Shown piece by piece: positions 2,871-56,172 of a stretch of DNA of 64,000 nt (position 1 is the first letter of the stretch; each line of letters begins with the position of its first letter). Both the position numbers and the translations under genes were made by a program. The stretch is from an uncultured Verrucomicrobiae bacterium (lineage in GTDB: Bacteria; Verrucomicrobiota; Verrucomicrobiia; Limisphaerales; CAVQOW01), in contig CAVQOW010000010.1 of assembly GCA_963714605.1 (NCBI GenBank), forward strand, positions 55,293 to 119,292, written 5' to 3'. The notes beneath the pieces are model-generated. The model did no database searches. It saw only the letters and a program-made list of their open reading frames with translations, and had not been told where the DNA came from.

Positions 2871-3015
2871 ACTTTGAAGCCGTCGAGAGTAAAGTCTCTG
2901 TGCTGATATTTCGCGCTGTGTTGTATGTGAAAAAAGTTTTGTTTCCACTCTTGACGGGGACGGAGGTGCTTTCCATATTTCACGCCCGTTCTCAAAAAGA
3001 GAATCCTAGCGTCCA

Positions 3016-4866
<1,851 letters not shown>

Positions 4867-4957
4867 CGGATTGGCACCAAGCTCAAAACCGCCGTTCCGC
4901 TCGACGGCGAATTCCTGTGCAACAACGACCACTATTCTTCAGGCCAATTATCTTGAA

Positions 4958-6151
4958 ATGAAACTTCGCACCGCCACCGCGTTGCGTTTCGCCGCACGGA
5001 CCGTTTCGCTGGCCGTTTTTTCGTTGTTGCTTGCCTTTACGCTGGCGCGCGGCGAATCCTCCAAGGCCGATTTCGCCTCGCCGCGCTTCTCCATCATCGT
5101 GCCGGGGCTGGAATACGCCCATGTGAGCGATCCTGCCAGGCCTTTGTCCATTCACATCGCCCGGCTTGACCGTGCCCGCCGCGAGTTCGATGTCATTACA
5201 ACTCTCGGCCGGGAAAAAATCCAAGGTCTCAGGACACTCTCGGAGCAGGCTGCATCCGTGTCACCGGCCATCGGGCAGCCGTTGGCCGCCGTGAACGGCA
5301 GTTTTTTCGTCCTTGACCCCGGCCCGTATCAGGGTGTTCCGGGAGGACTGCAGATCTTGAACGGCGGACTTGTCACGGCGCCGGACGGCCATTCGTTTTG
5401 GACCGAACCCGACGGACAACTTCGCATTGACACTGTTTATACCGAGTTCGAAGTCATCTGGCCCGGCGGCGAGAAGACACCAATGGGTCTGAACCAACCG
5501 CCAAAACCTGATGGCGTCACCCTGTTCACGCCCATTTTTGGCGATTCCACCCAGGCGAGCAATTCCATCGAACTCGTGCTCGAAAAAGTCGAGGGTCATA
5601 CATGGTTGCCCTTGCGCCCCAACCAGACCTATCCGGCCCGCGTGCGAGAAATCCGGCCACTGGGCAATACGCCGCTCGCACCTGACATCGCCATCCTCTC
5701 CGGGAACGGCAAAGTGACGAACCTTTTCGCAGTGATCAAACCCGGAGCGATCCTCCAACTATCCACTGGCATGAGCAAAGACCTTGACAGCGCACACAGT
5801 GCCATCGGCGGCAGTGCGCAACTCCTCCACAACGGCACACAGCCCGCTCTCCCGCCTGAGCGAGGCCTTAACGGCCTGCTGTTTCCGCGTAATCCGCGGA
5901 CAGCGTTGGGATTTAATAGCCGCTACTTTTACGTTGTCGTCGTGGATGGCAGGCAGAAAGAGTTGTCCGCCGGGATGAGTCTTGAGGAGTTGGTCGCATT
6001 CATGAAACGCCTTGGCTGCACCGACGCGTTGAATCTCGACGGCGGTGGCTCGACGACATTCTGGCTGAATGGGAAGGTGGTGAATTCGCCTTCGGAACAA
6101 CATGAGCGCCCGATTGCCAACGCAATCGTCATTGTGCGCAAGCCAGAATAG
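4958..6151 (+). CDS. secreted phosphodiester glycosidase family protein (NAGPA-like)
   Basis: ATG at 4958 followed by signal peptide; NGSFF and LDGGGS motifs typical of the family. Confidence 0.55.
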   Translation: MKLRTATALRFAARTVSLAVFSLLLAFTLARGESSKADFASPRFSIIVPGLEYAHVSDPARPLSIHIARLDRARREFDVITTLGREKIQGLRTLSEQAASVSPAIGQPLAAVNGSFFVLDPGPYQGVPGGLQILNGGLVTAPDGHSFWTEPDGQLRIDTVYTEFEVIWPGGEKTPMGLNQPPKPDGVTLFTPIFGDSTQASNSIELVLEKVEGHTWLPLRPNQTYPARVREIRPLGNTPLAPDIAILSGNGKVTNLFAVIKPGAILQLSTGMSKDLDSAHSAIGGSAQLLHNGTQPALPPERGLNGLLFPRNPRTALGFNSRYFYVVVVDGRQKELSAGMSLEELVAFMKRLGCTDALNLDGGGSTTFWLNGKVVNSPSEQHERPIANAIVIVRKPE

Positions 6152-7192: not shown

Positions 7193-7220
7193 TCCGAAAT
7201 CCGAAACCTGAAATCCGAAA
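7193..7220. repeat. (TCCGAAA)x4 heptamer tandem array inside hypF, encoding ...VRNPKPEIRN...
   Basis: direct reading: tccgaaa tccgaaa cctgaaa tccgaaa. Confidence 0.8.
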
Positions 7221-7518
7221 TTCCTGTGCTCCCGGCAACCCATGCCTCGGTGTCATGCTCCCTTACACACCGCTTCATCACCTGCTTCTGGCTGAGCTCG
7301 GATTTCCCATTGTCGCCACCAGCGGCAATCTGAGCGATGAGCCGATTTGCATTGACGAGCGTGAAGCGATCGAACGTCTCGGCGGCTTCGCCGACGTTTT
7401 TCTCGTTCACAACCGTCCCATCGTTCGCCATGTGGACGATTCCGTCGTGCGCGTGATGCTCGGTCGCGAACTGGTTTTGCGTCGGGCGAGAGGGTTTGCC
7501 CCGTTGCCAATTACTTTT

Positions 7519-7553
7519 AAATCGAAAATCGAAAATCGAAAATCGAAAATCGT
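7519..7553. repeat. (AAATCGA)x4 + AAATCGT heptamer tandem array inside hypF, encoding ...FKSKIENRKSKI...
   Basis: direct reading of five 7-nt units. Confidence 0.85.
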
Positions 7554-8312
7554 CTTGGCCGTCGGCGCGCATTTGAAAAACGCCGTTGCCCTCTCGGTCG
7601 GCGACCAGGTTTTCATCAGCCAGCACATCGGCGATTTGGAGACAGAACAGGCATTTGCCGCCTTCCGCCGGGTCATTGCGGATTTTGAAAAACTCTACGG
7701 GGCGAAATCGCGAAATAATCGCTGCTGATTTGCACCCGGATTACCTTTCGACGAAATTGCGAGAGTGGCGCGCGAAGGCAAGAGTACGCATCTTGAGGCC
7801 GGAAACCTGCGCTACATAAGTGTCCAGCACCATATTGCACACGTTCTGTCATGCATGGCGGAAAATGAGTTATCGCCGCCAGCGCTCGGTGTGTCGTGGG
7901 ACGGCACGGGCTACGGCTTGGACGGAACGGTTTGGGGCGGAGAATTTTTTCTTGTCACCGACAAAAGCGTCGAGCGCGTTGCACATTTCCGCCCGTTTCG
8001 GTTGCCTGGCGGAGACAAGGCCGTCAAAGAACCGCGCCGCGCGGCGGCAGGATTGCTTTACGAGATGTTTGGTGCGGCAGTGTTTGAACGAAAAGAGTTA
8101 GCGCCCGTCGCGGCATTTTCGCCCGGTGAACTATCCACACTGAAAGCAATGCTCGCGCGTAATCTTAACTCGCCTTTTTGTTGCAGCGTCGGCCGGTTGT
8201 TTGACGCCGTCGCTTCGCTGACAAATTTCCGCCAGCAAATCCGCTTCGAAGGGCAGGCCGCAATGGAACTGGAGTTCGCGCTGGAGGGAATCGAAACTGA
8301 CGAAGCTTATGA

Positions 8313-8389
8313 ATTGCGGATTGCGGATTGCGGATTGCCGGAATCGTCGCTCGACGGAAATCCGAAATCCGAAATCCGAAATCCGCAAT
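8313..8389. repeat. 77-nt palindromic element: (ATTGCGG)x3 ATTGCCG, 17-nt spacer, (AAATCCG)x4, inside hypF
   Basis: inverted heptamer arrays able to fold as a hairpin; the hypF frame switches from 1 to 0 exactly here (77 mod 3 = 2). Confidence 0.8.
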
Positions 8390-8706
8390 TATCTTGGACT
8401 GGTCGCCGATGATGGAAGCGATGCTGGCCGACATGCAAAGCGGCATTTCCGTCGGCAAATTTCCGCCAAGTTTCACAACGCTTTGGTCGGAAGGCATCAT
8501 CGCCGTCGCCAAACGTGCCGGCCAAACGCGGTGGTGCTTTCAGGCGGCTGTTTTCAGAATCGTTATCTTACTGAGCGCGCGGTGCGACGACTGCAGGTGG
8601 AGGGATTCCGTCCCTATTGGCATCAGCGCGTGCCGCCCAACGACGGCGGCATTGCCTTGGGCCAAGTCATTGCCGCGCGGCGCGAGAAGGGGTAGAATGA
8701 CAAGAC

Positions 8707-8965
8707 ATGTGTCTGGCCATTCCAGGAAAAATTGAAAGCATCAGCGGCGATGAGCCGCTGTCGCGCACGGGCAAGATCAATTTCGGCGGCATCCTCAAGG
8801 AAGCCTGTCTCGCCTACGTGCCCGAAGCGAAGGTCGGCGATTATGTCATCGTCCACGTCGGCTTCGCCCTCAGCCGGGTGGACGAGGACGAGGCGCACAA
8901 GGTTTTCGAGTACTTGAAGGAGATGGAGGAACTCGGCGAGCTGGGAGATGGAATCCGGCCCATGA
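8707..8965 (+). CDS. hypC: hydrogenase maturation factor HypC; runs through into hypD in this sequence, probably a 1-nt indel near its 3' end
   Basis: MCLAIPGKI... N-terminus typical of HypC/HupF; an out-of-frame TGA at 8963-8965 forms a canonical ATGA overlap with the hypD start. Confidence 0.6.
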
Positions 8966-10065
8966 AATATCTCGACGAATATCGCGACGGGGAGCTAGCG
9001 CAACAATTCGCGCGGGAGATCCATCGCGTCACGACCCGGCCGTGGAACATCATGGAAGTCTGCGGCGGCCAGACGCACGCCATCGTCAAGTTCGGCATCG
9101 ATGAATTGCTGCCCAAAGCCATCACGCTGATTCACGGTCCGGGCTGCCCGGTCTGCGTGACGCCGTTGGAAATGATCGACAAGGCGCTGGAGATCGCGGC
9201 GCGGCCCGGCGTGATTTTTGCCTCGTTCGGCGACATGCTGCGCGTGCCCGGCAGCACGACGGATCTGCTTTCGGTCAAAGCCAAGGGCGGCGACGTGCGA
9301 ATCGTTTATTCGCCGCTGGATGCGGTGAAGATGGCGGAACAAAATCCGGCCAAGGAGGTGGTTTTCTTCGGTGTCGGTTTTGAAACCACCGCGCCGGCAA
9401 CCGCGATGGCGGTTTATCAGGCTGCGCAGAAAGGCCTGAAGAATTTTTCGATGCTCATTTCGCACGTGCTCGTGCCGCCGGCGATCGAAGCGCTGATGTC
9501 GTCGCCGAACTGCAAGGTGCAGGGATTTCTTGCCGCCGGGCACGTCTGTGCCGTGATGGGCTACGAGGAATACCCGCCCATTGCGGCGAAATATCACGTA
9601 CCGATTGTCGTCACCGGTTTCGAGCCACTCGATATTTTGCAGGGCGTGCTGATGGTGGTGCAGCAACTGGAATCCGGCCGGGCCGAGGTTGAAAATCAAT
9701 ACACCCGCGCCGTGCGCCGCGAAGGCAACCAGCCGGCGCAGGAGCTGATCCGCAAGGTTTTCAAGGTCGTGCCCCGCAAGTGGCGCGGCGTCGGCGAAAT
9801 TCCGCAGAGCGGCCTCGGTTTGAACGACGCCTATGCCGCGTTCGACGCCGAAAAAAAATTCGGCCTGGCCGACCATCACGTTGACGAACCGGCCGAATGC
9901 CTCAGCGGCCTGGTTTTGCAGGGACAAATCAAACCGCACGAATGCCCGGCCTTCGGCACGCGCTGCACGCCGGAGCATCCACTCGGCGCGACGATGGTGT
10001 CATCCGAAGGCGCGTGTGCGGCGTATTACCGCTACCGGAGGCAACCGGCTGAAGCTGGAAAATGA
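8962..10065 (+). CDS. hypD: hydrogenase maturation factor HypD
   Basis: MKYLDEYRD... start; GPGCPVCV and other conserved HypD Cys motifs. Confidence 0.85.
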
Positions 10066-10079
10066 ATTATTTATGCGGG

Positions 10080-10181
10080 AACATCGAACATTGAACATCG
10101 AACATCGAACATCCAATTTCATTTGGATGGTCGGGGACAAGACATTCGATGTTGGGCGTTGGGCGTTGGATGTTGGATGTT
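10080..10181. repeat. about 100-nt palindromic element between hypD and hypE: (AACATCG)x4 AACATCC, 32-nt spacer, CGATGTT (GGGCGTT)x2 (GGATGTT)x2
   Basis: inverted heptamer arrays read directly; located in the 130-nt hypD-hypE spacer. Confidence 0.8.
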
Positions 10182-19081: not shown

Positions 19082-22000
19082 TTGCGCCGGTTAATTTGCA
19101 TTCAACCGATGCCGGACAGAATCGAACATCTGCAACACCTGTTGCGCGAACGCATCGTCATCCTTGACGGCGCGATGGGCACGATGATCCAGCAACGCAA
19201 GCTGGATGAGGCGGCGTTTCGCGGCGCGCGGTTCGCGGACTGGCGCGGCAAAGACCTAAAAGGGTGCAATGACCTCCTCAATCTCACCCAGCCGCAAATC
19301 ATCGAGGACATCCATCGCCAATATCTCGAAGCCGGCGCGGATATCATCGAGACCAACACGTTCAACTCGCAGTCCATCTCGCTTGCGGATTACGGGCTGG
19401 AATCGCTCGCCTACGAGCTGTCGAAAGCCGGCGCGGAATGCGCGCGTCGCGCTGCCGACAAAGTCATGGCCGCGCAACCGATGCGCGTCTGTTTCGTCGC
19501 CGGCGCGATTGGACCTACAACAAAAACCTCTTCCATCTCGACCGATGTCAACAATCCCGCCGCTCGCGGGACGACTTACGACAAACTGGTCACTGTGTAC
19601 GGCGAACAGATCCGCGGTCTGCTTGACGGCGGCGCGGACTTGCTGTTCGTCGAAACCATTTTCGACACACTGAATGCGAAGGCGGCGTTCTTTGCGATCC
19701 TAAAGTTTTCGAGGATCGCGGCGTCGAGCCGTTCTCTTTTTCCGCCGGAGTTGCTCAATCTCAAATCTCAAATCGCATATCGCAAATTCCAGTGCTCGCA
19801 TCTGTCACATTCATCCAAGCCGGAAGCAATCGCGGTGTTACCGGGCAAACCGTCGAAGCGTTTTGGAATTCCATCTCACACGTGCCGCTATTGAGCGTCG
19901 GCATGAATTGCGCACTTGGGCCGAAAGAATTGCGTCCGCTGATCGAGGAGCTTTCCGGCATTGCGCCGATTTACGTCAGCGCATATCCAAACGCCGGACT
20001 GCCGAATCCGCTCTTGCCGACGGGTTTTCCCGAAACACCGGAAACGCTCGCGCCCCAGTTGCGCGAGTGGGCGCAGAACGGCTGGTTGAACATCGTCGGT
20101 GGTTGTTGCGGCACAACGCCGTCGCATATCAAAGCAATCGCCGGCGCCGTAAAAAATTTGTCGCCGCGCAAAGTTCCGGCGGTTGAGCCTTACCTGCGAT
20201 TGAGCGGGCTGGATGCACTAACCGTGCGTCCGGATTCCAATTTCCTCAACATCGGCGAGCGCACGAACGTCGCCGGATCACCGAAGTTCGCCCAGCTCAT
20301 CAAGGCCGGCGATTACGAAGCCGCGCTGACGGTTGCACGGCAGCAGGTCGAGAACGGCGCGCAGGTCATTGATGTCTGCATGGACGAAGGGATGATAGAC
20401 GGTGTCGCGGCGATGACGCGCTTTCTCAACCTCATCGCCTCCGAACCGGACATCTGCAAAGTGCCGGTCATGGTGGATTCCTCGAAATGGGAAGTCATTG
20501 AGGCCGGATTGAAATGTCTTCAAGGCAAAGGCATCGTCAACTCGATAAGCCTGAAGGAAGGCGAGGAAAAGTTTTTGCATTATGCGAAACTCGTCCGTCG
20601 CTACGGTGCTGCGGTCGTCGTGATGGCGTTTGACGAACGCGGCCAGGCCGATTCGTTCCAGCGTCGCACGGAAGTCTGCAAACGCGCTTACGATTTGCTC
20701 GTCGGTAAAGTTGGTATCCCGCCGCAGGACATCATTTTTGATCCGAACGTGCTGACCGTCGGCACGGGCATGGAGGAACACGCGAATTACGCCGTGGATT
20801 TCATCCGCGCGACAAAGTGGATCAAGGAGAATCTACCTCATGCGAAAGTCAGCGGCGGCATCAGTAATGTTTCTTTCTCATTTCGCGGCAACAACGCCGT
20901 GCGCGAGGCGATGCACAGCGCGTTTCTTTTTCACGCCATCAAGGCCGGACTCGACATGGGCATCGTCAACGCCGGGATGCTGGCGGTCTATGAGGAAGTT
21001 CCGAAAGAGTTTTTGGAATTGGTCGAAGACGTTTTGCTGAATCGCAAACCCGACGCCACCGAGCGGCTCATCAAATTTGCCGAATCGGTGAAGCAAAAAG
21101 GTAAAACCAAAGTCGTCGAGGACGAATGGCGCAAGGGCACGGTTGAGGAACGGCTCAGCCACGCGCTCGTAAAAGGAATCGTGGATTTCATTGATGCCGA
21201 TGTGGAAGAGGCGCGTCAGAAATACGCGAAGCCGCTACTCGTCATCGAAGGCCCGCTCATGGCGGGCATGAATGTCGTCGGCGATTTGTTCGGAGCTGGC
21301 AAAATGTTTCTACCGCAGGTCGTCAAAAGCGCCCGCGTGATGAAGAAAGCCGTCGCTTATCTCCAGCCGTTCATGGAAGCAGAAAAGAAAGCCGCAGGCG
21401 GCACGCACAAAAATGCCGGCAAAATCCTTATGGCTACTGTCAAAGGCGACGTGCATGACATCGGCAAGAACATTGTCGGCGTTGTGCTGGCGTGCAACAA
21501 CTACGAGGTGATTGACCTCGGCGTGATGGTGCCGTGCGAAAAAATCCTCGCCGCCGCCCGCGAACACAAGGTCAACATCATCGGCCTCAGCGGACTCATC
21601 ACGCCGTCGCTCGACGAAATGGCGCATGTCGCCCACGAGATGGAACGCCAAGGTCTGAAGCTGCCGTTGCTCATCGGCGGCGCGACGACGAGCAAAGCGC
21701 ACACTGCGGTGAAGATTGCACCCGGTTACAATCAACCGGTGGTCCATGTCATTGATGCGAGCCGAGCCGTGCCGGTGGTTAGCAATTTGATTAGCACCGA
21801 GCAAAAACCGAAGTTCGCCGCGCGAATCCGCGACGAATACGACCGCGTTCGCGCCCAACACGGTGGTCAAACGGCAAAATTGGTTTCGATTGAGGAAGCT
21901 CGCGCCAACGCGCCGAAACTGAAGTTCGACGATTTGCCAAAGCCGGAGTTCACCGGCGCGCGAAAACTTTGTTCCGATATAGGCACAATTTCGCTGGCCG

Positions 22001-27950: not shown

Positions 27951-28871
27951 TTACTTTTTGCCTCTCGTAAAACCCGGCCGTGGACGGATCGGTGGCGGAA
28001 TGGGAATGCGCTTGGGCGGCAACGTTGGTGTGGACGGAGACGCCGTCGGCGGCGTGACCGAAGACTGTGGCCAGTTTTTCTGGGCAAGTTCCACGACTTG
28101 ACTGGCAACATTGGCGGCAGGTGATTCCGAAACCTTTGTCCCGATTGTTTCAATTCCTTTTGCCAGCCAATCCTCGGCCTTCGTCACCGTCTCGCCGATT
28201 TTCGTTTCGGGAAATTTCATCTCGCCGATCTGAAAATCGGTAAGCGACTTGAGTTTGTCCACGGTTTCACCCGCGGTTCTGACGACTTCAGTCCAACGGT
28301 CGCCCACTGTCGCCAACGTATCGTACCCGTTCACAATCCAATCGAGTTTGCCCGTCTGGATATCCACGACCAAACCGTGCACCGGCACTTTCGGACCGAT
28401 GAGCGGACTGTGCCGGACAATGTCGCACGCCTTGATGACGTTCTGCCGCTCGCTGCCGAACATGCCGAAGTAATCATTGATGTTCTCCGGCAACACGCGC
28501 CGTTCCACGCCCAGCGCCTTCAGCTTGTCGAGCAACTGCGTCGTCGTCGTCTTGCACACCTGACAATCCGTGTGGCCGATGATGGCGATTTCCTTGCCGC
28601 CCTTGACCGCGCACGCCAGCGCCAGCGACCGCATCGTGCTGCTGAGCGGCGCGGTGATGATGTTGCCCGCATTGCGCAACCAGATGAAACTCTCTTCCGG
28701 AACTCCGAGCACGCCCGGCATGAGCCGATTCAGTCGCGGGTCAACGCACGTCAGCGCCACGACCGGCAATTCGCTCTCGAACTCCGCCACATGGACTCCG
28801 GCGTTTTGATCGCCCGCAACCGCGCGACTGTTCGCTTCGATAATGGCTTCAAAAAGGCGCATGGCTGGCAT
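27951..28871 (-). CDS. beta-class carbonic anhydrase with Pro-rich C-terminal extension
   Basis: CVDPR and GHTDCQ zinc-ligand motifs. Confidence 0.8.
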   Translation of the reverse strand: MPAMRLFEAIIEANSRAVAGDQNAGVHVAEFESELPVVALTCVDPRLNRLMPGVLGVPEESFIWLRNAGNIITAPLSSTMRSLALACAVKGGKEIAIIGHTDCQVCKTTTTQLLDKLKALGVERRVLPENINDYFGMFGSERQNVIKACDIVRHSPLIGPKVPVHGLVVDIQTGKLDWIVNGYDTLATVGDRWTEVVRTAGETVDKLKSLTDFQIGEMKFPETKIGETVTKAEDWLAKGIETIGTKVSESPAANVASQVVELAQKNWPQSSVTPPTASPSTPTLPPKRIPIPPPIRPRPGFTRGKK

Positions 28872-28915
28872 GGAATTATCCCTCTTGCCTCAATTGGTCA
28901 AACAATGAATCAAAA
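28798..28915. repeat. native copy of about 118-nt repeat (first 25 codons of the carbonic anhydrase gene plus about 45 nt upstream)
   Basis: matches 30082..30199 at about 92% identity and 29523..29578 partially. Confidence 0.8.
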
Positions 28916-28990
28916 GGCCGCCTCTGCCGGTCAGTTTCGAGGTCGCCCTTTTTGTTTGCAGTTGCGGCCCAGGCAAGTTCAACTCTGGTC

Positions 28991-29272: not shown

Positions 29273-29474
29273 ACCGGCGGTTAAAGATATGCGGGCGGAA
29301 TATGATTTTTCGCGCGGCGTGCGCGGCAAACATTTCCGACGCTACCATCGCGGCGCGAACGTGGTGGTCTTGGGGCCGGACGTGGCCAAGGTTTTTTCCA
29401 ATGCCGAAACCGTGAACGATTCTCTCCGCGCGCTGGCGGGCATCATCCGCCGACAAAAAGCGGTAGCGAGATAA
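29253..29474 (+). CDS. brnA: BrnA-like antitoxin
   Basis: small ORF overlapping the brnT 3' end; ...EYDFSRGVRGKHF... C-terminus. Confidence 0.5.
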   Translation: MKKPSAKPAVKDMRAEYDFSRGVRGKHFRRYHRGANVVVLGPDVAKVFSNAETVNDSLRALAGIIRRQKAVAR

Positions 29475-29522
29475 TTTCCTTCTCCGCGCTGGGGAGAAGG
29501 TGGCCGGAGGCGGGATGAGGTG

Positions 29523-29578
29523 GATCGCCGGCAACCGCGCGACTGTTCGCTTCAATAATGGCTTCAAAAAGGCGCATG
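29523..29578. repeat. partial (56-nt) copy of the carbonic-anhydrase 5' repeat
   Basis: encodes ...MRLFEAIIEANSRAVAGD... out of context. Confidence 0.8.
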
Positions 29579-29584
29579 CCGGCT

Positions 29585-29803
29585 TTACTTCATTTCCCGT
29601 AGGAAATCCTCAATCTCTACTCCGCCATCACGCAATGCACCTTTCAGCGTGAAGCGGTCAACTTCGTCGTGAAAAGGAAACACGATCAACCTTCCATCGG
29701 GATGCTTCATCTTCACGTGACTGCCTTTGCGATGAATCTCCTGAAAACCCAGGCGCTGCAAAGCGGTCAACACCTGTCTGCCGGACAGGAGCGGCAATTT
29801 CAT
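29585..29803 (-). CDS. hicA: HicA mRNA-interferase toxin
   Basis: 72 aa; ...GFQEIHRKGSHVKMKHPDGRLIVFPFH... Confidence 0.75.
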   Translation of the reverse strand: MKLPLLSGRQVLTALQRLGFQEIHRKGSHVKMKHPDGRLIVFPFHDEVDRFTLKGALRDGGVEIEDFLREMK

Positions 29804-29997
29804 ACCGTCAATTCGACCACTTCGCGTTTGCCTGCCAGTTCTTCGGGCGATGGTTCAAGATAGAGATCAATCGCTTCCCGGATATTTATCAAAGCCTCCT
29901 CGCGTGTCTTGCCCTGTGACCAGCAACTCTTCAGCGACGGACAATGCGCCACGAAGTAGCCGTCCTCACCGGGTTCAATTATCACTTTCAAGTTCAT
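29800..29997 (-). CDS. hicB: HicB antitoxin (UPF0150)
   Basis: MNLKVIIEPGEDGYFVAHCPSLKSCWSQGKTREEALINIREAI...; ATGA overlap with hicA. Confidence 0.7.
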   Translation of the reverse strand: MNLKVIIEPGEDGYFVAHCPSLKSCWSQGKTREEALINIREAIDLYLEPSPEELAGKREVVELTV

Positions 29998-30081
29998 GCC
30001 ATTTGCCTTTCGTTCACGGGTGCAATGTAAACCGGCCAAAATCGAAAAGCCAGTTCATCGGCAAACTCCGTCGGATGCAAA

Positions 30082-30199
30082 CCGGCGTTTTGATCGCCGG
30101 CAACCGCGCGACTGTTCGCTTCAATGATGGCTTCAAAGAGGCGCATGGCTGACATGGAATTATCCCTCTTGCCTCAATTGGTCAAACACTGAATCAAAA
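30082..30199. repeat. third copy of the carbonic-anhydrase 5' repeat, pseudo-start MSAMRLFEAIIEANSRAVAGDQNAG...
   Basis: about 92% identical to 28798..28915. Confidence 0.8.
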
Positions 30200-30311
30200 T
30201 GCCGCTTGCGCGCAGTTCAACTCCGCAAATGCGAAGTTCGTGACCGACTACAAGAATGCCCGCATTATTGTGGATTCAACCGGCCGTAGCGCGAGAACTT
30301 ACTTTGCTCTT

Positions 30312-30683
30312 TTAATTGTGAGTTGAATTGATCGAATTTGTGCAACTGTTTGAATTCGTAGCTGCCAGATTCAAGTGGGTAATGCTTATTATTGCTTCAC
30401 GGCGAATTTCGTAAACAGTTGGTTTGTTCGTACTGCCCCTCCATTCTGCCGGCCCACCGGCTTCATTGGTCGAAGCGAGAAGAACAATACTACTATTCGC
30501 ATCAAGCAAAATCATACGGTTTGCTAAAAGTCCATTTACCACGTTTGTTGGTATTGAATTTAAAAATCTAGCGTCAAAATCTAATCGAACGGGATGAGAC
30601 ATTGTATAATCCCCACCACCTTTCGCCAGCCCGCCGCAGACTCCAGCGACCTGTCGGTCATCGCGTGAACGGCTGAGGTTCAT
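30312..30683 (-). CDS. hypothetical protein with PspC-like N-terminal motif, no TM segment
   Basis: RSRDDRQVAGVCGGLA resembles the PspC domain core; remainder unassignable. Confidence 0.25.
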   Translation of the reverse strand: MNLSRSRDDRQVAGVCGGLAKGGGDYTMSHPVRLDFDARFLNSIPTNVVNGLLANRMILLDANSSIVLLASTNEAGGPAEWRGSTNKPTVYEIRREAIISITHLNLAATNSNSCTNSINSTHN

Positions 30684-30688
30684 GTTGA

Positions 30689-30742
30689 ATTTACGATTTA
30701 CGATTTGCGATTTGCAATTGCGATTGCGATTTTCGATTCACG
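30689..30742. repeat. array of about 8 ATTTACG/ATTTGCG/ATTGCG units, abutting the stop of the four-helix-bundle gene
   Basis: direct reading. Confidence 0.8.
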
Positions 30743-31097
30743 CGCGGTTGGAAGTGCGGGCGGTTTTTGCCGATGAGACGACGATGGCCAGGATTTCATC
30801 GGATTCTTTCATCAAATCTCGAAGCAGCGATTCCTTGATATAATTGTTTTCCACCAGCAGTTCCATCCAGAACAATGATTCATCGCATTCTTCTTCAACA
30901 ATGCGAAGCTTGTTGATGAAGTCCGCGCCGGATTTCGCCCGACAGACAGCGCGGTAATTCGCACCCACAGAAGTCCCGCTACGAAGAAGCTGTTTTCCGA
31001 GTGTTTGCGCAACCCAATCACCCGGCAACGCAGAGCAGAGCTTCACGACACGATTGGCGTAAGTCTTCGTCCGATCTTTCATTTCCTCGCGCGTCAT
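30738..31097 (-). CDS. four-helix-bundle protein (23S rRNA intervening-sequence protein / Avd-like family)
   Basis: ...LGKQLLRSGTSVGANYRAVCRAKSGADFINKLRIVEEECDESLFWMELL... matches the family core. Confidence 0.8.
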   Translation of the reverse strand: MTREEMKDRTKTYANRVVKLCSALPGDWVAQTLGKQLLRSGTSVGANYRAVCRAKSGADFINKLRIVEEECDESLFWMELLVENNYIKESLLRDLMKESDEILAIVVSSAKTARTSNRA

Positions 31098-31100
31098 AGG

Positions 31101-31238
31101 ATTTACGATTTACGCGCGCCTTTTGATCTCGTCATCTGTGACATGAGCGTTGCGCATCTGTTTTCGTTTGAGTTCACAACAACCCAGCAGGCATGGATTT
31201 TCGACAGACTCGTAAATCGTATATCGTAAATCGTCAAT
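31101..31238. repeat. inverted heptamer arrays (ATTTACG x2 ... CGTAAAT CGTATAT CGTAAAT CGTCAAT) flanking a 96-nt core; between the four-helix-bundle gene start and the flotillin stop
   Basis: direct reading. Confidence 0.8.
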
Positions 31239-32762
31239 TTATTCGTCTTTTTTGCCCATCGCCTTTTTAAGTGCGGGGACTTGTTCCAGCAATTTCTCAA
31301 ACTTTACGCCGGTCAAACTTTCCAACACCGGCGGCAACTGGCTGATGATGGTCGTCACGTCGCCGGTGAGCTTGCTCGCGCCGCCGCCCGGCCCGTTGCC
31401 GGAATTGATGATGACCATCTTCTCAGTCTTGCTGAGCGGCTCGCTGATCTTGCCAGCGACTTCCGGCAGCACGCGCACAATCATTTCGATGACGGCGGCC
31501 TCGTTGTATTGCTTGAAGCTTTCGGCTTTGTTCTTCATCGCCTCGGCAGTCGCCTTGCCTTGCGCTTCGATGACGGCGGCTTCGGCCAGACCACGCGCTT
31601 TGTTCGCTTCGGCTTCGGCGATACCGGTGGCCTTGGCGACATCCGCGTTGGCAAAACCTTTGGCCTTGGCGGCGGATGCAGCGCCAGCGGCTTCGGTTTC
31701 GAGTTGGAACTTCGTGGCGTTGGCGAGCGTCTCGACTTTGTAGCGTTCGGCGTCGGCGGGTTTCTGGACGTTGGCTTCCAGTTCGCGCTGCTTTCGTTGA
31801 ATTTCCTGCTGTTGCAGCTCGATTTGCTTCTGCTTCTCGATGATTTGCACCTGCACTTCTTCCGCTTTCACCAACTGGCCGGTCTTGAATTTCTGCAAAT
31901 CATACGCGAGGTCGGCCTCGGCTTTCTTCTGATTCACCGCGGCCTGATATTGCGCGACGTTGGATTGATAATCGCGTTGCGCCTCGGCGACCTTGGTGTC
32001 GGCGGCAAACTTCGCTTCCTGTCCAGCCTGCGTGGCTTGTGACGACTTGATCATCGCGTCGCGGTCGGCTTCGGCCTGCGCGATCTGCGCGTCGCGTTTG
32101 ACCTGCGCGATACGCGGTTTGCCGAGCGCTTCGAGGTAACCCTGGCTGTCGCGAATGTCCTTGATCGTGAAGCTGACGATGCCGAGACCCATGTTGGCCA
32201 TGTCGCCCGCGGCGACTTCCTGAACCTTGGAAGCGAAGGCATCGCGGTTCTGATAAATGTCCTCGACGGTCATCGTGCCGAGGATGGCGCGAAGATGGCC
32301 TTCAAGCGTTTGCATCGCGACCCCTTTGATTTCATCGGTCGTTTTGCTGAGGAATTGCTCGGCGGCGGTGGCGATTGAAACGTCATCTCCTTTGACCTTG
32401 ATTTGCGCCACGCCATCCACGCGCACCGGCACGCCCTTGCTGGTATAGACATCCTGCTCCTGCTGCACGTCAATGGTGAGCAGTTCGAGCGACAGAATGT
32501 CCACCTTTTCAAAGACCGGCCACACGAAGACGCCGCCGCCTTTGACAATGCGGAAGCCGACGTCGCGCGCCGCGCCGTCCGGATCCACGATGCGGTGTTT
32601 GCGCCCGGAAATGACGAGCACCTGGTTCGGGCCGACCTTGGTGTAGCGGCTCGCCCAAATACCGGCGAAGATGAAGAAGACCAGCATGAGCGCGCCCACG
32701 CCCATGATGACGGTCAGCCATGGAATTTCGCCTGCAACGGCAAGAATAGGAGTCAGGTTCAT
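31239..32762 (-). CDS. flotillin-like SPFH/band-7 protein
   Basis: N-terminal TM, SPFH domain, long EA-rich coiled-coil (FloT/YuaG-like). Confidence 0.85.
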   Translation of the reverse strand: MNLTPILAVAGEIPWLTVIMGVGALMLVFFIFAGIWASRYTKVGPNQVLVISGRKHRIVDPDGAARDVGFRIVKGGGVFVWPVFEKVDILSLELLTIDVQQEQDVYTSKGVPVRVDGVAQIKVKGDDVSIATAAEQFLSKTTDEIKGVAMQTLEGHLRAILGTMTVEDIYQNRDAFASKVQEVAAGDMANMGLGIVSFTIKDIRDSQGYLEALGKPRIAQVKRDAQIAQAEADRDAMIKSSQATQAGQEAKFAADTKVAEAQRDYQSNVAQYQAAVNQKKAEADLAYDLQKFKTGQLVKAEEVQVQIIEKQKQIELQQQEIQRKQRELEANVQKPADAERYKVETLANATKFQLETEAAGAASAAKAKGFANADVAKATGIAEAEANKARGLAEAAVIEAQGKATAEAMKNKAESFKQYNEAAVIEMIVRVLPEVAGKISEPLSKTEKMVIINSGNGPGGGASKLTGDVTTIISQLPPVLESLTGVKFEKLLEQVPALKKAMGKKDE

Positions 32763-44246: not shown

Positions 44247-46018
44247 GATACTGCGAATCGCCCTACTTTTACAAACGCCGAAAAACGCGCGAGATCGTCG
44301 TTGGCGATCCCAACAACGGCGGCTTTGTCATGGGCGGCAACCATCCTGTCGTCATGCAATCCATGCTCACGTGCGACACGATGGACACGGCGGAGTGCGT
44401 GAAGCAAACGCTCGACCTTGTGGCCGTCGGCTGCCAGCTCGTACGCATCACCGCCCCGACGGTAAAGGACGCGGCGAATTTGCAGAATATCGTCGCCGAA
44501 TTGCGGAAGCGTGGATGTAATGTGCCGATTGTCGCCGACATCCATTTCAAGCCTGACGCCGCGATGGAAGCCGTGAAATGGGTTGAGGTCGTGCGCGTGA
44601 ATCCCGGCAATTATGCCGATTCGAAAAAATTCGCAACCAAGGAATACACCGACGAGCAATACGCCGCCGAGTTGAAGCGCATTGAGGAAAAATTTGCGCC
44701 GCTCGTGCTGGAAGCGAAACGGTTGAAGCGTTGCCTTCGCATCGGCACGAACCACGGCTCGCTTAGCGACCGCATCATGAACCGGTATGGCGACACGCCG
44801 CTGGGCATGGTCGAGAGCGCGCTGGAGTTTGCCCGCATCTGCCGCAAGCACGACTTTCACAACTTCAAATTCTCGATGAAGGCGAGCAACCCGAAGGTGA
44901 TGATCGAGTGCTATCGGTTGCTCGTCGCGCGGCTGGAACAGGAAGGGCCGGACTGGAATTATCCGATTCACCTCGGCGTCACCGAGGCGGGCGAAGGCGA
45001 GGATGGCCGAATCAAATCCGCCATCGGCATCGGTTCGCTACTTTGCGACGGTTTGGGCGATACGATTCGCGTTTCGCTTACGGAAGATTCGCCCCGTGAG
45101 ATTGAAGTGTGCCGCGACTTGCTGACGCAAATTCCGAGCCTTGCCAATCTGCAGCCTTCGACCTTCAATCTTCAACCTTCGTTTGACCCTTTTCACTTCG
45201 AGCGACGTGAGACGCCGGAAATCGAACTCGCTCTCGGCGTGAAATGCGGCGGCGAGCAACTCATCCGCGTCGTCGTCACGCACGCGACGTGGGACAAAGT
45301 CGCACCGAAGATTCGTCCCAAGGACGACGTGAAGCCGGAGGCGGTCTATGAAGACCTGAACGTCGCGGAAATTGATCCGATGCAGAACTTCGACATCAAC
45401 TGTGACACGCAACTCGTTACCGTGAAAGACGGCGTCCCGCATTGCGGGATTACCGCATTTCGCTTGCTCGCGGCAAAGTTGAAACACCTGGGACGGAAAA
45501 ACCCGATTCTGCTGAAAGATTGTCTAAGCTTCGATCCGACACCGCTCGAACCGAAAATCGCCTTGCTCCGCGCGTCGGTGGTCATTGGCTCGCTACTGGC
45601 GGATGGAATCGGCGACGCGATTTTGATTCGCGGAGAAAGCGGGGCGGGCCAATCGCTGCGGCTGGCTTACAACATTTTGCAGGCGGCGGGTTGCCGTTCG
45701 TTCAAGACCGATTACGTCGCGTGCCCGTCGTGCGGGCGAACGCTGTTCAACTTGCAGACTGTCACGGCGCGCATCAAGACGCGAACGGAGCATCTCAAAG
45801 GCGTGAAGATCGCGATCATGGGCTGCATCGTGAACGGCCCCGGCGAAATGGCCGATGCGGACTTCGGTTACGTGGGCGGCGCGCCCGGCAAGATCAATCT
45901 CTACGTCGGCAAGACGCCCATCAAATTCAATATTCCCGAAGCCGAAGCCGTGGAACGCCTCGTGGATTTGATTCGCGAACACGGAAAATGGGTTGAGCCG
46001 GAAATGGTGAATGCCTAA
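44243..46018 (+). CDS. ispG: 4-hydroxy-3-methylbut-2-enyl diphosphate synthase IspG, long form with internal insert
   Basis: 591 aa; TIM-barrel N-terminal part and CPSCGRT...GC...NG 4Fe-4S C-terminal part. Confidence 0.9.
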   Translation: MRYCESPYFYKRRKTREIVVGDPNNGGFVMGGNHPVVMQSMLTCDTMDTAECVKQTLDLVAVGCQLVRITAPTVKDAANLQNIVAELRKRGCNVPIVADIHFKPDAAMEAVKWVEVVRVNPGNYADSKKFATKEYTDEQYAAELKRIEEKFAPLVLEAKRLKRCLRIGTNHGSLSDRIMNRYGDTPLGMVESALEFARICRKHDFHNFKFSMKASNPKVMIECYRLLVARLEQEGPDWNYPIHLGVTEAGEGEDGRIKSAIGIGSLLCDGLGDTIRVSLTEDSPREIEVCRDLLTQIPSLANLQPSTFNLQPSFDPFHFERRETPEIELALGVKCGGEQLIRVVVTHATWDKVAPKIRPKDDVKPEAVYEDLNVAEIDPMQNFDINCDTQLVTVKDGVPHCGITAFRLLAAKLKHLGRKNPILLKDCLSFDPTPLEPKIALLRASVVIGSLLADGIGDAILIRGESGAGQSLRLAYNILQAAGCRSFKTDYVACPSCGRTLFNLQTVTARIKTRTEHLKGVKIAIMGCIVNGPGEMADADFGYVGGAPGKINLYVGKTPIKFNIPEAEAVERLVDLIREHGKWVEPEMVNA

Positions 46019-55725: not shown

Positions 55726-56172
55726 TTATTTTTTCAACCGATAGAACCAGTTGCCCGTGGGTGGAGTGATGGTGACGCTCTTGGTCGTGCCGTCATCGTT
55801 GATTGTGCCGCCGTAAGCTGACCAGCCGTTGGTGTTGGACAAATCGGTGTTTTGTTGCAGCACAAAATCGGCGGAAGGTGACGGCCATGAGACGATGACG
55901 TCCTCGCCGCTGTGCGTGACGGTGAGCAACGGTGCGCCGGGCGTTTGCACGGCGGCGATGAGACTCCAGAAACCGCCGTCCAAAGAATAACTGCCACCGC
56001 TCATGGTTGCACCCGCGTCCGGCTGGCCGATAGTGCCGCTGACGGAATACACGCCACCAGTGCTTGTACAGCCACCACCGTCAATCGTGGACCAGTCAAT
56101 CGAATAGTTCTGCGCTGTGGCGCGAAGGCAGAAGGCAGAAGTAAGAATGAAGAAACAAAACCTCGCCAAGGG
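55726..56172 (-). CDS. small secreted protein ending in a conserved about 70-aa C-terminal domain shared with the giant beta-helix protein
   Basis: probable TTG start with signal peptide; C-terminus ...VSWPSPSADFVLQQNTDLSNTNGWS...TITPPTGNWFYRLKK. Confidence 0.4.
   Translation of the reverse strand, partial: PLARFCFFILTSAFCLRATAQNYSIDWSTIDGGGCTSTGGVYSVSGTIGQPDAGATMSGGSYSLDGGFWSLIAAVQTPGAPLLTVTHSGEDVIVSWPSPSADFVLQQNTDLSNTNGWSAYGGTINDDGTTKSVTITPPTGNWFYRLKK

Follow-up and report, generated by a model that had tools for sequence, protein, structure and literature searches.

We identified a small gene of the four-helix-bundle (4HB) family PF05635 / TIGR02436, encoding 119 amino acids and enclosed by tandem arrays of the heptamer ATTTACG and its complement, in a 64,000-nt stretch of DNA from an uncultured Verrucomicrobiae bacterium (contig CAVQOW010000010.1, positions 55,293 to 119,292; this whole stretch is referred to here as the window). 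The gene and its arrays take up the interval 30684-31238 (555 nt), which is the entire gap between the stop codon of a flotillin gene (31239) and the ATG of a PspC-like open reading frame (ORF; 30683). We consider it fairly likely that this interval is a selfish cassette of the type found as intervening sequences (IVSs) in 23S rRNA, here residing outside rRNA, between two co-oriented protein genes, and with arms that form a stem of ~26 bp. The parts of the locus are the following.

30738..31097, minus strand: 4HB gene, 119 aa, PF05635 / TIGR02436 (ORF read in the sequence, plus family matches)
31210..31238, minus strand: outer 5' arm, tandem repeat of period 7 with 4.1 copies (TCGTAAA), directly 3' of the flotillin stop codon
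31115..31209, minus strand: spacer of ~96 nt forming the loop of the upstream hairpin (inverted repeat I4 and fold), with a GCGCG clamp at its end
31101..31114, minus strand: inner array, two CGTAAAT units when read on the strand of the gene, with 3 nt between it and the ATG downstream, and in the same direction as the 3' array
30689..30742, minus strand: 3' arm, period 7, 7.4 copies, consensus ATTTGCG; the ATG of the next gene lies 5 nt beyond
31239..32762, minus strand: flotillin (Band_7/Flot, by Pfam), the upstream neighbour, synteny anchor and one edge of the insertion
30312..30683, minus strand: PspC-like ORF (Pfam PF04024, below the curated cut-off), the downstream neighbour and other edge of the insertion

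On the gene's strand, the outer 5' arm reads ATTGAC GATTTAC GATATAC GATTTAC, and the 3' arm is composed of the units CGAAAAT, CGCAAT, CGCAAAT and CGTAAAT. An earlier note on this DNA had described a 4HB gene bracketed by such arrays, and both parts of that description hold. The stop codon (30738-30740) falls within the array at 30689-30742, the start codon (31095-31097) lies 3 nt from ATTTACGATTTACG at 31101-31114, and the inverted partner of the latter is found 96 nt further on. With 26 nt each, the arms furthest out (30688-30713 and 31214-31239) are 88% complementary and 500 nt apart; the outer 5' arm pairs with 30688-30719 in inverted repeats I1-I3, and the same arms pair in the minimum free energy (MFE) fold of the whole module. 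The arms of the inner hairpin (31097-31114 and 31211-31228) are 89% complementary, with an ordinary fold energy for this upstream hairpin (z=-0.96), and a 19-nt direct repeat, D3 (GATTTWCGATTYACGCGCG), is present on both sides of the gene (30728-30746 and 31100-31118). Allowing up to 2 mismatches, ATTTACGATTTACG occurs 10 times in the window, compared with 0.34 expected occurrences and a maximum of 2 over 100 shuffles, and 7 is the sole tandem period enriched there (9 arrays, whereas every other period between 4 and 12 gives 0-1). A scan of the module found no promoter or terminator consensus on the gene's strand, and an Rfam scan of 30200-31700 returned no match. The 96-nt spacer was also considered as a decayed second copy of the gene and rejected as such, the only sequence in common with the 4HB gene being CGCGCGTAA, a part of the stem clamp; its likeness to the spacer of a related locus, L013, is confined to the 3' end.

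The family assignment is well supported by profiles and by structure. The protein matches PF05635 with E=1.8e-16 (60.7 bits, vs a curated cut-off of 33.8), TIGR02436 with E=3e-24 (85.3 bits, vs 24) and PDB entry 2RLD, the structure of BT_0352, with E=1.8e-20. The AF2 model of the 119-aa protein consists of four helices (pLDDT 97.4), for which Foldseek gave TM scores of 0.86 to 2RLD, 0.82 to 2GSC (Xcc0516) and 0.71-0.76 to Avd (4DWL, 8UB7), the protein of diversity-generating retroelements (DGRs), at a sequence identity to Avd of 10-13%. 2RLD comprises five chains. The family alignment is strongly conserved, with invariant polar residues, and PF05635 as a whole contains 9793 clusters at 50% identity; the exact 119-aa protein of the window had no match in the contig index searched. 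Between 4HB copies, whether at the same or at different sites, dN/dS is 0.02-0.14 and dS is ~1 or saturated. The 4HB protein is, judging from these ratios, under strong purifying selection, and the copies are old, as dS is ~1 or saturated; the gene is accordingly selectively maintained and no recent arrival. Despite this divergence, the ATTTACG heptamer is unchanged in all copies compared.

Heptamer arrays and the PF05635 family

We fetched 80 homologous loci with a 12-sequence profile (cited below by L numbers), representing at least 9 phyla: Verrucomicrobiota, Acidobacteriota, Chloroflexota, Planctomycetota, Nitrospirota, Bacteroidota, Cyanobacteria, delta-proteobacteria and Patescibacteria. 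Of the 80, 71 have an array on one side of the gene or more, and 39 of them have arrays on both sides. Period-7 arrays reach a density of 2.45 per kb near the gene, compared with 0.117 per kb elsewhere, and arrays of any other period amount to at most 0.054 per kb in either place. Arrays occur in 98/142 (69%) of gene-adjacent intergenic regions vs 11/104 (11%) of the remaining intergenic regions in these loci, which served as the control (odds ratio 18.8, p=4e-21). An 87%-identical gene lies at the cdsA|dxr junction of a further verrucomicrobial genome (L001), with (GATTTAC)4 upstream and (CGTAAAT)4 downstream. The same locus holds a second 4HB paralogue (4518-5043; 151 aa, 31% identical) between dxr and rseP, and this paralogue has inverted arrays of its own, of the AATGACG type upstream and CATTCGT downstream. 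Taken across loci, the comparison shows that the arrays belong to the gene family and not to the site.

Heptamers vary by locus, with upstream/downstream pairs such as ACGATTT/AAATCGT, ATTGCGG/AATCCGC, ATTTTGG/AAAATCC, ACCATTT/AAATGGT and AGTGCGG/ACTCCGC, among others. Nevertheless, in 35 of the 39 two-sided loci the heptamers of the two sides are reverse complements of each other, allowing for no more than 1 mismatch, compared with a mean of 9.8 complementary pairs and a maximum of 19 when partners are shuffled (2000 trials); exact complements number 23 of 39, vs a shuffled mean of 2.8. The arms are thereby shown to keep their complementarity while the heptamer changes between lineages, a pattern of covariation. 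Stems built from the arms of 41 loci are 15-40 bp long and 92% Watson-Crick. Across the loci the heptamers have a common core, M-A-A-T-C-S-K, with A at position 2 in 101/110, T at position 4 in 110/110 and C at position 5 in 102/110, counts that are somewhat inflated by the register having been picked on the core itself. Array length is 2-5 units in 119/122.

The mean protein distance is smaller between loci sharing a heptamer in different phyla (0.372) than between loci with different heptamers in the same phylum (0.403), and heptamer type follows protein clade no less closely than it follows host phylum. Moreover, arrays elsewhere in the fetched flanks share the heptamer type of the local gene in 19/48 cases, compared with a mean of 6.2 and a maximum of 16 after shuffling. 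The repeats also reach into protein annotation: several family members (P0126-P0128, P0143) end in tails such as IRNPKSS, IRNPQSAME and IGNRQS, and IRNPKS and IRNPQSA are found in many. These tails are translated downstream heptamer arrays, so that gene callers read into the repeats and the cassettes give predicted proteins repeat-encoded tails. Among 7993 scored hits to close homologues, the best 120 were all 81-96% identical and mostly on very short contigs; this suggests that the cassettes may break short-read assemblies.

Presence and decay of the module at its insertion sites

In many metagenomes from soil and peat, proteins 84-87% identical to that of the window occur at the same place (in the order NfeD-flotillin-X-PspC...carbonic anhydrase), invariably accompanied by arrays, and the outer 5' array is in the same position in L003-L022, L109 and L137. 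Two layouts recur. In type A, the stop codon of the preceding gene is followed by (ATTTACG)4, a spacer of 43-46 nt, and the ATG and body of the gene, whose stop codon lies inside (CGTAAAT)2-4. In type B (the window and L013-L022), the spacer is 96-112 nt long and an additional (CGTAAAT)2-4 directly precedes the ATG, a layout with direct arrays on both sides of the gene and a hairpin upstream. Types A and B are both also found at cdsA|dxr, and the module occurs at a pgsA-like junction as well. Downstream heptamers number 4 in L003 and 2 in L007, the 4HB genes of which are identical, and this difference in copy number points to slippage.

With flotillin as the anchor we retrieved 80 loci (flotillins 82-89% identical to that of the window), 71 of which extend far enough downstream for the junction to be assessed. 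In 66/71 nothing of the element is present, and the next gene starts 5-60 nt past the stop codon. Single loci have the intact module (1/71, L137), a gene lacking a large internal part but still surrounded by arrays (1/71, L117) and a decayed remnant consisting of the last 29 codons only (1/71, L157), and a gene-less hairpin of the same heptamers is found in 2/71 (L109, L140), the layout in L109 being TAA-(ATTTACG)4-25 nt-(CGTAAAT)5-ATG of carbonic anhydrase. In a rough neighbour-joining tree of the flotillins, computed without support values, carriers fall in at least 5 places among empty relatives, and the nearest flotillins to that of the window (88% identity) are empty. These comparisons show a unit that close relatives either carry or lack as a whole, that occupies several junctions and that decays to gene-less hairpins. 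A tree of the 4HB proteins clusters by insertion site only partially, with sites mixed; it is built from short sequences with no support measure, and we set it aside as evidence of movement, keeping it as a hint only. No recombinase was seen.

The earlier note had cast the locus as a repeat-delimited cassette inserted after the flotillin operon, and had named beforehand two findings that would speak against this: other copies of the family without any association with arrays, and relatives having the gene at this site but no repeats. Both checks came out in favor of the note. The flanked loci (71 of 80) and the intergenic counts above (69% vs 11%) answer the first, and the second is answered by the relatives carrying the gene at the flotillin site, which also carry arrays (L003-L022 and L027; in L137 the upstream array was seen directly). 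The insertion itself is supported by the trace-free majority of informative flotillin relatives and by the existence of decay intermediates. The nature of the delimiters needs amendment: the usual ones are inverted arrays able to pair, and the direct bracket seen in the window is the type B variant, which has an extra upstream hairpin.

Other palindromic elements lie just past the flotillin stop codon in L111, L118, L151, L154, L158, L160, L174 and L182. They include sequences resembling repetitive extragenic palindromes (REPs), namely GTAGGAGCCTGCTTGCAGGCGAT and GTAGGGCG..., and, in L174, inverted arrays of the 8-nt unit GGATTAxT. This position is an insertion hot spot.

A proposed looped-out cassette and alternative explanations

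Intervening sequences of 23S rRNA that contain an S23p ORF (Coxiella burnetii, Leptospira) resemble the window element in having an ORF of the same family in the loop of a stem, of ~28 bp, and in being patchily distributed among relatives. In the 23S IVS of Coxiella burnetii, the gene for a protein of the same family is enclosed by a 28-bp terminal stem, and three tandem GACAGAT heptamers precede the S23p ATG; the 5' cut by RNase III is at the first repeat, and repeat number differs between strains (PMC4990558). Tandem heptamers near the gene, variable in copy number, thus give it the same architecture as the window module, in which arms able to form a terminal stem of 20 bp or more likewise surround the ORF (26 nt, 88% complementary and paired in the MFE fold). 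Unlike these IVSs, which lie in helix 9, 25 or 45 of 23S rRNA, the window element is located outside 23S rRNA and between protein genes (flotillin and PspC-like). The Coxiella IVS also differs in its heptamer, and its ORF is reported as decaying and unexpressed, in contrast to the strong purifying selection indicated here. Excision by RNase III has been shown only for the IVSs of Coxiella, Leptospira and Salmonella, and the solved relative in the family is a homopentamer (PMC4990558).

The cassette consists of three parts: a 5' arm (GATTTAC)n, a promoterless PF05635 gene and a complementary 3' arm (CGTAAAT)n, with CGCG clamps on the inner side. We hypothesize that it is read through from the flotillin operon, and that in the transcript the arms zip into a stem of ~26 bp, so that the cassette is looped out between the stop codon of the preceding gene and the start codon of the following one. 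Long perfect double-stranded RNA is a substrate of RNase III, and by analogy with the homologous 28-bp stem of the Coxiella IVS this stem may be cut as well, in which case cleavage would release the cassette RNA and keep damage to the host operon small. The M-A-A-T-C-S-K heptamer is probably recognized, as RNA or as DNA, by the pentameric, Avd-like protein; such putative binding is suggested because the core is conserved, heptamer type covaries with protein clade, array length tops out at five units, relatives are pentameric and Avd is part of an RNA-protein complex.

Several observations weigh against a mobile cassette that loops out of RNA. Sampling by the 80 loci is limited to PF05635 members 49-87% identical to the query. 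The patchy distribution could be explained by one old insertion followed by many clean losses, and with dS ~1 or saturated between copies, recent movement is without documentation. Inspection of the junctions in the window, L001, L003 and L013 revealed no target-site duplication. The fold energy of the whole module is ordinary (z=-1.26), and mismatches on the sense strand of the 41 stems comprise 18 G.U and 24 A.C pairs (p=0.44), with no excess of G.U and hence no direct sign of selection on pairing in RNA. Because this bias is lacking, the RNA-stem step is drawn from homology, and pairing at the DNA level or homogenisation of the arms fits equally well. The co-orientation of 4HB genes with their neighbours (79-80%) is probably only modestly above that of ordinary bacterial gene adjacency, and we set it aside as evidence, being too near to it.

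An alternative that overlaps this explanation makes the protein-repeat interaction, and not RNA looping, central. In analogy to RAYT and REPIN, the 4HB pentamer would bind or propagate the arrays, the flanked gene acting as a 'master' and gene-less arrays as its dependants or as regulatory sites; we regard this as possible, and hold it with some doubt. The window element resembles REP/REPIN systems with their RAYT in having one protein gene between inverted copies of a short repeat that is also found in gene-less intergenic hairpins after stop codons. It is unlike them in that RAYT is an HUH (Y1) tyrosine transposase, whereas the flanked gene here encodes a four-helix bundle with no known catalytic motif, PF05635 and TIGR02436 being its only matches, and in that REPs are palindromes of 20-40 nt rather than tandem heptamers. 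This alternative is consistent with the M-A-A-T-C-S-K core being kept across phyla, beyond the need of pairing, with a heptamer type that follows protein clade at least as well as phylum, and with the 19/48 other arrays that match the type of their local gene. Arrays rarely exceed 5 units and solved relatives have five chains, the protein is strongly conserved with its polar residues invariant, and its fold relative Avd is found in an RNA-protein complex (8UB7). The family is, however, without a known nuclease or recombinase motif, the other arrays of the window are never of the ATTTACG type, and the match of heptamers within genomes could reflect shared ancestry of the arrays.

Heptameric repeats described previously also bear on such a partnership. 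GGGAATC in Xanthomonas and GGGGAYT in Anabaena are over-represented, with a role unknown (Rehm et al. 2015, PMC4692102). These repeats are mostly intergenic, between co-oriented genes, at an average of 28 nt from the 5' ORF vs 160 nt from the downstream one; they often form inverted pairs in Xanthomonas, and their length varies between relatives (PMC4692102). X. campestris has 186 GGGAATC arrays, one of which, repeat 15 (GGGAATCGGGAGTGGAGAATCGGGAATC), is separated by 6 nt from bccP (XCC0517) and overlaps with the start annotated for XCC0516 (PMC4692102 supplement). XCC0516 is the crystallised family member (2GSC), and an array at this very gene favours an interaction between protein and repeat. 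In PMC4692102 the repeats are not linked to PF05635: 'S23' is absent from the main text and supplements and 'four helix' from the supplements, and XCC0516 appears only as 'conserved'. The arrays studied here share with the Rehm heptamers the tandem 7-nt units with an AATC core and the intergenic position near the 5' gene, and the outer array, directly after the flotillin stop codon, is placed as in the heptameric intergenic repeat class (Rehm 2015; Mrazek 2007). They differ in that the Rehm heptamers are described as G-quadruplex-forming, with no protein partner.

The arrays might instead act as slippage-prone patches of homology in a passive DNA cassette, through which recombination moves or loses the gene and for the spread of which neither stem nor protein has a role. 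Direct arrays (D3) would allow deletion of the gene, leaving hairpins like those of L109 and L140; copy number varies between near-identical loci, the 4HB tree mixes insertion sites, and both the lack of G.U bias and the lack of the target-site duplication of classical transposons and miniature inverted-repeat transposable elements, as judged by inspection, fit this view. We nevertheless consider it unlikely, as it leaves unexplained why the arms stay complementary through heptamer change and why the AATC core is conserved across phyla, and gives no account of a single family as the passenger in 69% of adjacent gaps or of a dN/dS of 0.02-0.14. That the gene merely happens to lie between three of the heptamer repeats common in the intergenic DNA of this genome is highly improbable: about a dozen heptamer arrays are present in the window, most of them far from the gene, but the odds ratio of 18.8 next to PF05635 genes is measured against other intergenic regions of the same loci, and other sites and other species show the same arrays around this gene. 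We give hardly any credence to the gene being the Avd component of a DGR. Near DGR reverse transcriptases, no family is commoner than PF05635 (PMC10053308), and Avd, a small basic-surfaced pentamer in an RNA-protein complex (8UB7), has the same four-helix-bundle fold (TM 0.71-0.76 to 4DWL and 8UB7); however, identity to Avd is only 10-13%, and Avd genes are not described with flanking heptamer arrays. The neighbours in the window are flotillin, NfeD, the PspC-like ORF, toxin-antitoxin genes and carbonic anhydrase, with no reverse transcriptase or template/variable repeat pair within ~4 kb on each side.

Taken jointly, these comparisons lead us to propose, tentatively, that PF05635 4HB proteins and tandem heptamer arrays may constitute one widespread and so far unrecognised class of bacterial element, in which the protein would be the specific partner (a binder, possibly a propagator) of M-A-A-T-C-S-K heptamers, 23S IVSs would be copies that landed in rRNA, and the heptameric repeats found in excess (GGGAATC in Xanthomonas, heptamers in cyanobacteria) would be gene-less progeny or binding sites. 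A single architecture would then tie together three separate facts, namely the abundance of PF05635 ('four helix bundle protein'), which is among the most abundant uncharacterised bacterial families, the origin of 23S rRNA intervening sequences, for which none has been known since about 1990, and the excess of heptamers in bacteria. The excess of heptameric repeats in bacterial genomes has been described as unexplained (PMC4692102). Family genes have been found wedged among cas genes, e.g. between cmr3 and cmr2, such that cassettes sit within operons, cas operons included (PMC3936711). The link between PF05635 genes and heptamers appears to be absent from the searchable literature: no general statement of it was found in the full texts searched, with subscription-only papers and database family notes lying outside that scope.

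Other arrays and neighbouring genes in the window

Gene-less arrays with an AATC core are present at 7193-7221, 7519-7552, 8313-8389, 10079-10181, 19757-19787 and 45155-45180. Those at 7193-10181 and 19757 are of the types AAATCCG, AATCCGC, AAATCGA and AACATCG, and none of the other arrays in the window is of the ATTTACG type of its only 4HB gene. Two gene-less arrays lie inside the hypF frame, translated as RNPKPEIRN and KSKIENRKSKI, the 3' part of hypF contains an inverted array pair, and another such pair fills the hypD|hypE gap. In metH, one array lies within an apparent in-frame insert of ~19 aa, judged by eye against the E. coli MetH sequence. The frames of hypF and metH change at several points (about 7700-7800, about 8390-8450 and about 19700), one metH change being at the run AAAGTTTT, ~55 nt ahead of the array, and one hypF change at the hairpin of 8313-8389; these changes represent either indel errors of long-read assembly or pseudogenes.

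Downstream of the module, the match of the PspC-like ORF to PspC is limited to residues 2-21, and relatives carry an intact PspC of 78 aa. It is followed by the toxin-antitoxin genes HicA/HicB and BrnT and by a gene for carbonic anhydrase. The GC content of 29450-31250 is 45-53%, compared with 55-62% in the flanks, and the segment looks like an accessory, rearranged one. The 5' end of the carbonic anhydrase gene (its first 56-142 nt; N-terminus MRLFEAIIEANSRAVAGD) is present three times in direct orientation at 91-96% identity (28780-28921, 29523-29578 and 30064-30205), with a BrnT-type and a HicA/HicB cassette bracketed by the copies. The toxin-antitoxin cassettes seem to have been inserted successively at the 5' end of carbonic anhydrase, with the target duplicated each time.

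In addition to the AATC-core arrays, we observed an array of GAAGGCA, which falls outside this core, at 56124-56141 of the window, and a longer array of the same unit in an acidobacterial locus (L082, ~2996-3036). GAAGGCA arrays may represent a second heptamer family.

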